The notes under the pieces: generated by a model | Databases searched by the model: none | Told to the model about the DNA's origin: nothing | The model's input: the letters and a program-made list of their open reading frames with translations, nothing else | Made by a program: the position numbers and the translations under genes | Shown: positions 4,689 through 6,166 of the stretch, in pieces | How the letters are laid out: each line of letters opens with the position of its first letter | How positions within the stretch are numbered: position 1 is the first letter of the stretch | DNA from: Escherichia coli phage vB_EcoM_Shy | Reading direction: 5' to 3' (one strand) | Sequence record: MT833282.1 | DNA length: 64,000 nucleotides

Positions 4689-4766
4689 GGGAGATTGACG
4701 GTAATTGGTAAACCTACCATCCTTAGAAGTTGGTGTTTGAGGGTTCGAATCCCTTGTCTCCTACCA
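4689..4766 (+). tRNA. tRNA with anticodon TAG (Leu by anticodon, but short variable arm)
   Basis: acceptor gggagat/gtctcct, anticodon loop cttagaa, T arm gaggg-ttcgaat-ccctt, A73, CCA. Confidence 0.5.
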
Positions 4767-4773
4767 AATTAAT

Positions 4774-4849
4774 GCAGGTGTAGCAAAATGGTTATGCGGC
4801 TGACTCTTAATCAGTAAGACGATGGGTTCGAATCCCTCCACCTGTACCA
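4774..4849 (+). tRNA. tRNA-Lys(CTT)
   Basis: paralog of the tRNA at 3459; anticodon stem-loop gctga-ctcttaa-tcagt, T loop ttcgaat, CCA. Confidence 0.6.
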
Positions 4850-4855
4850 AGCATT

Positions 4856-4931
4856 GGGGTCATAGTTTATATGGTTAAAATTCGAGTTTTGCAAACTTGG
4901 GAACTGAGTTCAATTCTCAGTGACTCCACCA
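4856..4931 (+). tRNA. tRNA-Ala(TGC)
   Basis: G3-U70 wobble pair in acceptor stem (Ala identity element), anticodon loop tttgcaa, T arm ctgag-ttcaatt-ctcag, CCA. Confidence 0.7.
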
Positions 4932-4937
4932 ATTAGC

Positions 4938-5012
4938 GCATCCATAGTTTAAACGGGAAAATTACAGTCTTCCAAACTGAGGTTGAGGGTTCGATTCCCT
5001 CTGGATGCTCCA
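4938..5012 (+). tRNA. tRNA-Gly(TCC)
   Basis: acceptor gcatcca/tggatgc, anticodon loop cttccaa, T arm gaggg-ttcgatt-ccctc, CCA. Confidence 0.65.
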
Positions 5013-5019
5013 AATTAAT

Positions 5020-5095
5020 GCTCCTATCGTATAATTGGCTATTACAGTTGCCTTGTAAGCAACTTATCAGGGTTCGAATCCTTGTGGGAGCACCA
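5020..5095 (+). tRNA. tRNA-Thr(TGT)
   Basis: acceptor gctccta/tgggagc, anticodon stem-loop gttgc-cttgtaa-gcaac, T loop ttcgaat, CCA. Confidence 0.7.
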
Positions 5096-5097
5096 AT

Positions 5098-5187
5098 TCA
5101 GAGGTCAAGTGAAAGACCGCTTTGAGTCAACTGAAGACCGTAACAAATTCCACGGAGTTGAGTTAGCGGCACAACTTCAGACCTCTT
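5098..5187 (+). repeat. tRNA-array interspersed element E5 (nested hairpin with gaagaccg motif)
   Basis: cagaggtc ... gacctctt outer stem; internal ctgaagaccgtaacaaattc resembles the 5' motif of E1-E4. Confidence 0.35.
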
Positions 5188-5191
5188 TCAT

Positions 5192-5266
5192 ACTCGCTTA
5201 GTTTATATGGTAAAACATCACCCTTACAAGATGAAGAAAAAGGTTCAAGTCCTTTAGTGAGTACCA
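5192..5266 (+). tRNA. tRNA-Val(TAC)
   Basis: D stem gttt/aaac, anticodon loop cttacaa, T arm aaagg-ttcaagt-ccttt, CCA. Confidence 0.65.
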
Positions 5267-5267
5267 T

Positions 5268-5345
5268 GTTCCAGTATCCCAATTGGCAGAGGATGCAAGC
5301 TCAAACCTTGTACTAGTGACGGTTCGAATCCGTCTTGGAACACCA
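5268..5345 (+). tRNA. tRNA with anticodon CAA (Leu by anticodon, short variable arm)
   Basis: acceptor gttccag/ttggaac, anticodon stem-loop gcaag-ctcaaac-cttgt, T arm gacgg-ttcgaat-ccgtc, A73, CCA. Confidence 0.5.
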
Positions 5346-5350
5346 ATTTT

Positions 5351-5425
5351 GCAGGATTAGTTCAAATGGATAGAGCAACAGTTTACGAAGCTGTTAATAG
5401 GGGTTCGAATCCCTTATCCTGCGCC
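5351..5425 (+). tRNA. tRNA-Arg(ACG)
   Basis: acceptor gcaggat/atcctgc, anticodon stem-loop acagt-ttacgaa-gctgt, T loop ttcgaat, CCA. Confidence 0.65.
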
Positions 5426-5445
5426 AATTTAAAGAGGCTATTTAG

Positions 5446-6003
5446 ATGAGATATTTGAAGTATGCTTCATGGATTTTCTTAGCTTTGTTAGAGCCATTTG
5501 CAGCAATCTTAGCAGTTATCTTAGCACCTTTCGTAGTTCCATTTTACAGTGAGAAGAAAGGACACTTACCTTTCGGATTTAGATGGATGGAGACATATGA
5601 CAACCCTATTGATGGTGATGAAGGTCATATCGAACGATGGGCTAAGATTAGAAAGATTGGTAAGCTAGGTGTCTATATGCAGAGAGTCGGATGGCTCTGG
5701 AGAAACAAAGCTTATAACTTCTCCTACCATGTGTTAGGAAGAGATGTAAAAGATGTTACTAAGTGGAAAGGTAATATCAACGTAAGTTCTAACCCTAAAG
5801 ATAATCAGACAGGTTATCTCCTAATGTGGAACAGTAATGCTTGGGGATTATTCGCTTTTATCCCATCAATTAAAGTCTTTGGTAAACAATTCTACTGGAG
5901 AATTTATGTTGGGTGGAAACTTAAAAGTGTTGTCCCAGAAGAAAGAGCATTCTCAAGGGAAAGAGTTATGTTGGCATTCTTTATTCATCCACTGAGAAAG
6001 TAA
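5446..6003 (+). CDS. hypothetical membrane protein embedded in tRNA array
   Basis: 185-aa ORF with RBS aagagg; hydrophobic N-terminal segment WIFLALLEPFAAILAVILAPFVVPF. Confidence 0.6.
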   Translation: MRYLKYASWIFLALLEPFAAILAVILAPFVVPFYSEKKGHLPFGFRWMETYDNPIDGDEGHIERWAKIRKIGKLGVYMQRVGWLWRNKAYNFSYHVLGRDVKDVTKWKGNINVSSNPKDNQTGYLLMWNSNAWGLFAFIPSIKVFGKQFYWRIYVGWKLKSVVPEERAFSRERVMLAFFIHPLRK

Positions 6004-6011
6004 AGATTTAA

Positions 6012-6087
6012 AGGGGATTAGTTTACAAGGTTAAAACCTCGGTCTTTGAAATCGAAGAAGTTGGTTCAATTCCAACATCCCCCGCCA
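6012..6087 (+). tRNA. tRNA-Gln(TTG)
   Basis: D stem gttt/aaac, anticodon stem-loop tcggt-ctttgaa-atcga, T arm gttgg-ttcaatt-ccaac, CCA. Confidence 0.6.
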
Positions 6088-6089
6088 AT

Positions 6090-6166
6090 GCTCCATTACT
6101 CCAATTGGCAGAGGCCAGACTTAAAATCTGTGTTATGTATCGGTTCGAATCCGATATGGAGTACCA
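6090..6166 (+). tRNA. tRNA with anticodon TAA (Leu by anticodon, short variable arm)
   Basis: anticodon stem-loop caga-cttaaaa-tctg, T arm atcgg-ttcgaat-ccgat, A73, CCA. Confidence 0.5.

Follow-up and report, generated by a model that had tools for sequence, protein, structure and literature searches.

Introduction

Almost all bacterial leucine tRNAs are stated to be of type II (Fan et al. 2019, Nucleic Acids Res, PMC6614811). In Streptomyces coelicolor, a type I tRNA-Leu(CAA) with the variable loop A44-C45-A46-G47-C48 was shown to accept leucine, and the leucyl-tRNA synthetase (LeuRS) of this organism charges tRNA-Leu of both types (PMC6614811). Here we analyze three tRNA genes with leucine anticodons and short variable regions in a stretch of 64,000 nucleotides (nt) from Escherichia coli phage vB_EcoM_Shy (MT833282.1), which we refer to as the window. 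A preliminary description of the window, made from the sequence alone, had noted these genes and left open whether its anticodon registers were wrong or the genes were unusual class I tRNAs decoding leucine codons. Our analysis excludes the first option: the three genes are real, conserved type I leucine tRNAs.

The determinants for E. coli LeuRS are A73, A15:U48, G18G19, A20a and the tertiary contacts between D- and T-loop; neither the anticodon nor the long arm is among them, and a minimal tRNA-Leu truncated of its arm stays active (PMC9976931). This engineered E. coli molecule is charged by E. coli LeuRS provided that A73 is present and the D/T contacts are intact, and human mitochondrial tRNA-Leu(UUR), which is of type I, draws its identity from A73 and A14 (PMC9976931). 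A paper on the MenT3 toxin further implies that two of the five tRNA-Leu of Mycobacterium tuberculosis are without the long loop.

Three tRNA genes with leucine anticodons and short variable regions

ARAGORN and Rfam call the same three genes. Their parts are as follows, with the evidence in brackets:

4689..4766, plus strand: type I tRNA-Leu(UAG), 78 nt, CCA encoded (ARAGORN; Rfam, 40.0 bits)
4703..4712, plus strand: leucine-type D-loop AATTGGTAAA of the UAG tRNA, with A14, A15 and G18G19 (compared with E. coli and T4 tRNA-Leu)
4724..4726, plus strand: anticodon TAG, reads CUA/CUG (ARAGORN, Rfam, window sequence)
4734..4738, plus strand: variable region UGUUU of the UAG tRNA, 5 nt, last base U48 (ARAGORN and Rfam)
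5268..5345, plus strand: type I tRNA-Leu(CAA), 78 nt, CCA encoded (ARAGORN; Rfam, 43.6 bits)
5280..5292, plus strand: D-region caattggcagagg of the CAA tRNA (identical to that of the UAA tRNA)
5302..5304, plus strand: anticodon CAA, reads UUG (ARAGORN, Rfam, window sequence)
5312..5317, plus strand: variable region ACUAGU of the CAA tRNA, 6 nt, last base U48 (ARAGORN and Rfam)
6090..6166, plus strand: type I tRNA-Leu(UAA), 77 nt, CCA encoded (ARAGORN; Rfam, 47.1 bits)
6102..6114, plus strand: second copy of the D-region caattggcagagg, UAA tRNA (window sequence)
6122..6124, plus strand: anticodon TAA, reads UUA/UUG (ARAGORN, Rfam, window sequence)
6132..6138, plus strand: variable region GUUAUGU of the UAA tRNA, 7 nt, last base U48 (ARAGORN and Rfam)

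All three exceed the gathering score of the Rfam tRNA family RF00005 (29 bits), and both the Rfam scores and ARAGORN identify them as cloverleaves with a conserved T-loop. The cloverleaves drawn by ARAGORN have 7-base-pair (bp) acceptor stems, 3-bp D stems with large D-loops, and 5-bp T arms closed by a UUCGAAU T-loop; every gene ends in ACCA, that is, in A73 followed by the encoded CCA. The anticodon loops in the Rfam alignments, CUUAGAA (UAG), CUCAAAC (CAA) and CUUAAAA (UAA), agree with those of ARAGORN, so that two independent programs arrive at the same registers, and automated folding yielded neither a different anticodon nor a long arm. Counted with canonical 5-bp stems, the variable regions span 5, 6 and 7 nt, and in none of the three is a stem found there by ARAGORN or in the Rfam alignments. 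The preliminary description was thus accurate on coordinates, anticodons, overall length (77-78 nt) and the A73 discriminator; its range of 5-6 nt for the variable region holds for the UAG and CAA tRNAs and falls one nucleotide short for the UAA tRNA.

Both the CAA and the UAA tRNA have A9, a 3-bp D stem, C13 and A73, and, as had been noted before, they have a D-region in common, caattggcagagg, which occurs exactly twice in the 64-kb window. The UAA tRNA has in addition a G1:U72 pair, as in E. coli leuZ. Each of the three leucine tRNAs contains one copy of the motif AATTGGYARA, which is found nowhere else in the window, the other tRNAs of the 26-gene cluster to which they belong included. The UAG tRNA is irregular. 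It has G1:U72, A73 and an A37 in its anticodon loop, but the connector between its acceptor and D stems, U-G-A, is with three nucleotides one longer than usual, and its anticodon stem contains a U:U mismatch. For this gene we also considered the register of the Rfam alignment, which starts one base later and makes a U the discriminator; it was rejected as it breaks the encoded A73-CCA end, which only the ARAGORN register fits, and we therefore use the latter throughout.

The identity elements are those of leucine

All three tRNAs have A73, U8, A14 and A15, and a U directly 5' of the T stem, which gives them U8:A14 and A15:U48 (for the UAG tRNA in the ARAGORN register, with the extra connector nucleotide included). 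G18G19 and A20a are found in an enlarged D-loop on a 3-bp D stem, reading AAUUGGCAGA twice and AAUUGGUAAA once. The D-arm follows a pattern common to the phage genes and the tRNA-Leu with which we compared them: U8, a 3-bp D stem, then A14-A15-U-U-G18-G19-Y-A-G/A-A. What is absent is the long type II variable arm, a hallmark of its class but not an E. coli determinant, in place of which there are 5, 6 and 7 nt without a stem. The three genes accord with the definition of type I tRNA-Leu as a leucine anticodon combined with a hairpin-less variable loop of about 5 nt (Fan et al. 2019). The 3:70 pairs are G3-C70, U3-A70 and U3-A70, without the G3:U70 of alanine identity, and serine identity, a long arm with G73, is absent, the variable region being short and position 73 an A. 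Judged by sequence, the identity set is that of leucine minus a feature that is no determinant in E. coli. The structure supports the earlier suggestion of class I tRNAs that decode leucine codons; by these identity elements, they would accept leucine as well.

The same elements mark viral type I tRNA-Leu in general. Among 53 such tRNAs that lay outside the selection by our scan patterns (see below), 91% have A73, compared to 98% of type II tRNA-Leu and 51% of 1,172 other class I tRNAs from the same viral loci. For A15:U48 the values are 98%, 95% and 33%, respectively.

Conservation and covariation

By its sequence, the source is a Felix O1-like phage of the genus Felixounavirus. The 2.2 kb around the three genes have matches in 307 records; the identity is 96-98% for over 200 Felix O1-like phages whose hosts are Escherichia, Salmonella, Shigella and Citrobacter. 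The genes are found in about 300 phage records, most of them with three tRNA-Leu annotated at the site, and the CAA gene recurs at an identity of at least 95% in 247 phage records. With the CAA gene in 247 records and the surrounding region in 307, the genes are not a product of chance.

A more distant comparison is offered by Erwinia phage phiEa21-4 (Ounavirinae, Kolesnikvirus), which has three similar tRNAs of 77-78 nt with the anticodons CAA, AAG and UAA. Between the two phages, the CAA orthologues agree fully in the D-arm, UAUCCCAAUUGGCAGAGGA, while seven compensatory double substitutions separate them in the acceptor, anticodon and T stems. This pattern marks a tRNA under selection whose D-arm is especially constrained. 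In the same phage, ARAGORN reports a tRNA-like gene with a 2-nt anticodon, 'tt', at 3527-3599, which is annotated as tRNA-OTHER.

To extend the comparison, we assembled 100 distinct and diverse type I tRNA-Leu sequences with a mean pairwise identity of 58%. Standard pairs make up 98.2% of their cloverleaf cells, against 58% in shuffled and 37-46% in slid controls, and 19 of the 20 cloverleaf pairs show changes on both sides; since ARAGORN had picked the sequences as cloverleaves, the percentage paired is partly built in, whereas the count of compensatory changes is not. The core of viral type I tRNA-Leu differs from that of type II tRNA-Leu. At position 9, A is found in 53% of the type I but 1% of the type II sequences (which have G in 92%), and position 13 is C in 58% of the former and 2% of the latter; the CAA and UAA tRNAs of the phage have both A9 and C13. 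This shift suggests that the armless form has a rebuilt core and did not arise by simple deletion.

Setting of the genes

The cluster to which the three genes belong also contains class II tRNAs, which serve as internal controls: the tRNA for tyrosine and both for serine retain their long arms.

2281..7361, plus strand: cluster of 26 tRNA genes, all on this strand (ARAGORN)
2836..2923, plus strand: tRNA-Tyr, class II, long arm, 88 nt
4343..4432, plus strand: tRNA-Ser, class II, long arm, 90 nt
7189..7281, plus strand: tRNA-Ser, class II, long arm, 93 nt
5446..6003, plus strand: open reading frame (ORF) of 185 codons, between tRNA-Arg(ACG) and tRNA-Gln(UUG)
3008..3458, 3693..4027, 4105..4342, 4433..4688 and 6437..7188: gaps of 240-750 nt without tRNAs

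The ORF inside the cluster matches the Pfam family DUF7338 from end to end (E = 3.5e-62); some related records list a 'putative membrane protein' nearby, possibly this ORF.

Salmonella phage Si3 (NC_041922.1) lacks this ORF along with the intervening tRNA-Arg and tRNA-Gln, and has in their place a chimeric tRNA of 79 nt (5124-5202), whose 5' part corresponds to the CAA tRNA up to the common D-region and whose 3' part corresponds to the UAA tRNA. The hybrid acceptor stem pairs at six of seven positions. From the sequence, the chimera appears to result from a deletion through recombination of the two identical D-regions, caattggcagag. At the tRNA-Asp position of Si3 (2806-2882), ARAGORN also reports a tRNA-like gene with the 4-nt anticodon 'gtca', annotated as tRNA-OTHER.

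Annotation of the type I genes varies between records. RefSeq marks the UAG homologue of Si3 (4546-4620) as a 'tRNA-OTHER' pseudogene, a type I tRNA-Leu of Salmonella phage OSY-STA (NC_048808.1) is labelled 'tRNA-Xle', and in some phage records the type I genes are unannotated.

Type I tRNA-Leu in other viruses and in bacteria

We conducted three scans of IMG/VR. The first used a leucine D-loop, a leucine anticodon loop and a T-loop at class I spacing and is biased towards short tRNA-Leu; the second and third are neutral with respect to length, using a generic T-loop/ACCA pattern and a leucine motif with a variable region of any length, respectively. Each scan of genomes or contigs covers at least 120 loci, a part of all occurrences.

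The first scan yielded 160 tRNAs with leucine anticodons and variable regions of at most 8 nt on at least 120 viral loci, on which 98 of 99 tRNA-Ser and all 41 tRNA-Tyr have variable regions of at least 10 nt. In the second scan, 5 of the 15 tRNA-Leu are short and 10 long, with long arms in 22 of 23 tRNA-Ser and 13 of 14 tRNA-Tyr. All 123 tRNAs matched in the third are tRNA-Leu, 22 of them type I, 100 type II and one with a variable region of 9 nt; on these loci 54 of 54 tRNA-Ser and 17 of 19 tRNA-Tyr keep the arm. Among the loci scanned, type I thus accounts for roughly 18-35% of the tRNA-Leu on viral contigs, including those of T5-, T4- and N4-like phages. That tRNA-Ser and tRNA-Tyr keep their arms while tRNA-Leu loses it is as expected if only LeuRS tolerates the loss.

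Type I tRNA-Leu is concentrated where tRNAs cluster:

Loci with at least 10 tRNAs: 23 type I and 42 type II tRNA-Leu
Loci with 4-9 tRNAs: 11 type I and 48 type II tRNA-Leu
Loci with 1-3 tRNAs: 1 type I and 50 type II tRNA-Leu

In the length-neutral scans the commonest anticodon is CAA for type I (17 of 40) and UAG for type II (70 of 150), and CAG is rare in both (1 of 40 and 8 of 150, respectively). The A37 of the UAG tRNA is commoner in type I than in type II: viral tRNA-Leu with NAG anticodons have A or G at this position in a ratio of 43 to 33 for type I and of 29 to 65 for type II.

A type I consensus query had matches in 935 records of cultured phages, and we confirmed tRNA-Leu of 76-77 nt in Salmonella phage gmork (T5-like), Cronobacter phage LPCS28 (T4-like, two genes), Pseudomonas phage ZC03 (N4-like) and Mycobacterium phage Ghost.

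A scan of prokaryotes, with one genome per species and again at least 120 loci, shows a spread in Actinomycetota far wider than the published Streptomyces case. Among the matches listed, most are single chromosomal type I tRNA-Leu genes from dozens of Actinomycetota genera, including Mycobacterium, Nocardia, Rhodococcus, Gordonia, Corynebacterium, Bifidobacterium, Arthrobacter, Rothia and Amycolatopsis, with mostly UAA or CAA and some UAG anticodons. Mycobacterium, Cronobacter phage LPCS28 and the phage studied here have almost the same D-arm, UAGCCCAAUUGGCAGAGGCA. The remaining matches are tRNA arrays, such as the 26-tRNA array of Cylindrospermum sp. NIES-4074 with five type I tRNA-Leu. Long bacterial arrays of this kind (12-26 tRNAs within 8 kb) contain several type I tRNA-Leu next to long-armed tRNA-Ser and tRNA-Tyr, like the phage clusters.

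The preliminary description had called tRNA-Leu class II in both bacteria and phage T4, which is correct for T4 (87 nt) but too general for bacteria, given the type I genes of Actinomycetota; the word 'unusual' likewise needs qualifying, short-armed tRNA-Leu being published for S. coelicolor and frequent in Actinomycetota and on viral contigs. In a literature search outside which many subscription papers lay, we found no paper that describes this form for phages, Felix O1 or tRNA arrays. Type I tRNA-Leu is already known as a kind, then, and it is its frequency in phages that seems to have gone undiscussed.

Charging and use in translation

Within the window there is no significant match to E. 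coli LeuRS (best E = 1.4). In the phage collection, tblastn gave LeuRS-like genes in 74 records, among them, by organism name, 5 of Escherichia and 4 of Salmonella phages; this breakdown, set against the roughly 300 Felixounavirus records, argues against a Felixounavirus LeuRS. With none in the window and no sign of one in Felixounavirus, the host enzyme is the only candidate for charging. Tests on the host side gave no similar tRNAs in 5,426 complete E. coli genomes.

Phage tRNAs are usually viewed as supplying codons that the phage uses more than its host. The window has a G+C content of 39%, and the leucine codons of its 59 long ORFs are TTA (27.8%), CTT (27.4%), CTG (16.0%), TTG (12.3%), CTA (10.8%) and CTC (5.7%). 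For the host we judged codon use from a single E. coli gene, leuS, in which 75% of the leucine codons are CTG. The three anticodons cover UUA, UUG and CUA (and CUG), and UUA, UUG and CUA together make up about half of the leucine codons of the phage and are rare in leuS, a coverage of phage-favored codons that fits the usual view.

We consider it probable that the three genes are functional type I leucine tRNAs of the phage, charged by the host LeuRS and used in translation. They would be transcribed within the 26-gene cluster, with their CCA ends already encoded, and the host enzyme would then charge them with leucine, which is likely because A73, U8:A14, A15:U48, G18G19/A20a and the enlarged D-loop on a 3-bp D stem are all kept; the one feature missing is the long arm, which E. 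coli LeuRS does not require. Once charged, the tRNAs would read UUA/UUG, UUG and CUA/CUG, codons far commoner in the phage than in leuS. Their function would thus be ordinary and their form is only moderately unusual.

Several observations weigh against this reading. In the one published test of E. coli LeuRS on a natural type I tRNA-Leu, made in vitro, the enzyme failed with the Streptomyces tRNA-Leu(CAA) of type I, although it charged the type II form, and it is described as charging type II only (PMC6614811). The Streptomyces molecule has C48 and may therefore lack A15:U48, a possible reason for the failure. CTT, the joint most used leucine codon of the phage, has no tRNA with a GAG or AAG anticodon, and the UAG tRNA carries the irregularities described above, namely the 3-nt connector, the U:U mismatch and A37. 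Lastly, in thermodynamic folding of the single sequences the cloverleaves are not the structures of minimum energy (z = -0.3, -1.5 and -1.6); we judge such weak scores to be uninformative, as they are usual for AT-rich, unmodified tRNA sequences.

Alternative explanations

One alternative is a layer on this explanation rather than a substitute for it: the loss of the arm would be adaptive, allowing leucine decoding to survive a toxin or host defence that recognizes class II tRNAs by their long arm, or avoiding cross-charging by seryl-tRNA synthetase (SerRS), an enzyme that reads this arm. The concentration of type I tRNA-Leu in loci with many tRNAs (type I to type II, 23:42 at 10 or more tRNAs against 1:50 at 1-3) and a core that is rebuilt rather than merely shortened (A9 in 53% against 1%, C13 in 58% against 2%) speak for this reading. 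However, no defence is known in Enterobacteria that targets tRNA-Leu through its arm, and a toxin of this kind would still disable the tRNA-Ser and tRNA-Tyr of the phage itself, which keep theirs. Actinomycetota have the same design on their chromosomes, outside any phage context, and neutral loss of a dispensable arm, combined with the deletion bias of phages, fits the data equally well. We therefore regard adaptive loss as unlikely, and there is little support for any of the specific benefits, be it escape from MenT3, escape from the abortive-infection toxin AbiEii or avoidance of SerRS. A broader proposal, which we hold to be similarly doubtful, is that phage type I tRNA-Leu represents a distinct and horizontally spreading A15:U48 design with a rebuilt core, common to phages, tRNA arrays and Actinomycetota; enterobacterial LeuRS would charge it, contrary to the published statement, and armlessness would have been selected because it removes a handle for class II-directed toxins or for SerRS.

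It is also conceivable, though we think it improbable, that the host LeuRS charges these tRNAs poorly or not at all and that their role lies outside translation, as nuclease decoys or as regulatory or primer RNAs. That phage tRNAs can neutralize defences targeting tRNAs is an established idea. The failure of E. coli LeuRS to charge the S. coelicolor type I tRNA-Leu(CAA) points the same way (PMC6614811). A decoy, however, would need its anticodon loop but neither A73 nor A15:U48, whereas even widely divergent sequences keep the complete LeuRS identity set as well as the encoded CCA. Nor would such a role account for anticodons that cover about half of the leucine codons of the phage, and precisely UUA, UUG and CUA, which are rare in leuS.

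A tRNA whose anticodon had shifted from another isotype would be expected to look like a class I body with a leucine anticodon, and the hesitation of annotators over the Si3 homologue ('tRNA-OTHER') and the OSY-STA gene ('tRNA-Xle') could be taken in this sense. Charging with another amino acid is nevertheless very improbable: without G3:U70 the tRNAs are not suited to alanine and without a long arm or G73 not to serine, most other synthetases read the anticodon, which is here NAA or NAG, and the leucine-type D-arm occurs only in these three of the 26 tRNAs in the window.

That the genes are decaying pseudogenes whose variable arms were lost by deletion, as might be suspected from their Rfam scores, the lowest among the class I tRNAs of the cluster, and from the irregular connector and U:U mismatch of the UAG gene, has hardly any likelihood in view of their 95-100% identity in hundreds of genomes, their retention across genera with compensatory changes, the intact T-loops, A73 and CCA of all three, and the same architecture in about 160 other viral genes.

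Comparison with known systems

It is common teaching that bacterial tRNA-Leu always has the long arm, yet in coliphages of several families type I tRNA-Leu genes are clearly under purifying selection. The choice is between an E. coli LeuRS that accepts a natural armless substrate with A15:U48 and a role of these widespread genes other than the delivery of leucine. In annotation, pipelines label some such genes 'tRNA-OTHER' or 'tRNA-Xle'; for tRNA engineering, a compact natural substrate of LeuRS could be of help.

The host is the first point of comparison. The phage tRNAs would rely on an enterobacterial LeuRS whose known substrates, as far as the four isoacceptor genes of E. coli K-12 that we read are concerned, are all of type II. 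With leuZ (UAA), leuX (CAA) and leuW (UAG), as well as leuV (CAG), they agree in the anticodons UAA, CAA and UAG, in A73, and in U8:A14 and A15:U48. The 3-bp D stem is the same, and the E. coli D-loop AAUUGGUAGA follows the same AAUUGGYAGA design; the G1:U72 pair of leuZ is found in two of the phage tRNA-Leu. The differences lie in the arm and the core: leuV, leuZ, leuX and leuW are 85-87 nt long with a stem-loop variable arm of 13-15 nt, and at positions 9 and 13 E. coli tRNA-Leu have G, in contrast to the A9 and C13 of the phage CAA and UAA tRNAs. E. coli tRNA-Leu(UAG) has G37, the phage UAG tRNA A37.

Other coliphages encode tRNA-Leu within tRNA clusters as well. The tRNA-Leu(UAA) of T4 and the tRNA-Leu(UAG) of T5 are, however, long-armed type II molecules (87 and 85 nt, respectively), although the T4 D-loop, AAAUUGGUAAA, resembles that of our UAG tRNA. 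In the comparison with host and related phages proposed in the preliminary description, the four E. coli isoacceptor genes, T4 and T5 all have long arms, and the felixounavirus relatives keep short-armed genes. The type I tRNA-Leu of gmork, LPCS28, ZC03, Ghost and phiEa21-4 resemble the latter in their length of 76-78 nt, variable loops of 5 nt, A73 and D-arm. These genes are separate ones, from phages of unrelated families, annotated plainly as tRNA-Leu, and we found no comment on the missing arm.

Among the type I molecules described before, tRNA-Leu(CAA) of S. coelicolor resembles the phage tRNAs in its leucine anticodon, short variable loop (5 nt there) and A73, but has C48, unlike the phage tRNAs with their U48 opposite A15. 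Human mitochondrial tRNA-Leu(UUR) is a floppy, reduced structure with a mitochondrial LeuRS of its own; in the phage tRNAs, the T-loop and the D/T elbow are canonical. The engineered minimal tRNA-Leu, finally, is a laboratory construct with reduced kinetics, while the phage tRNAs are natural genes.

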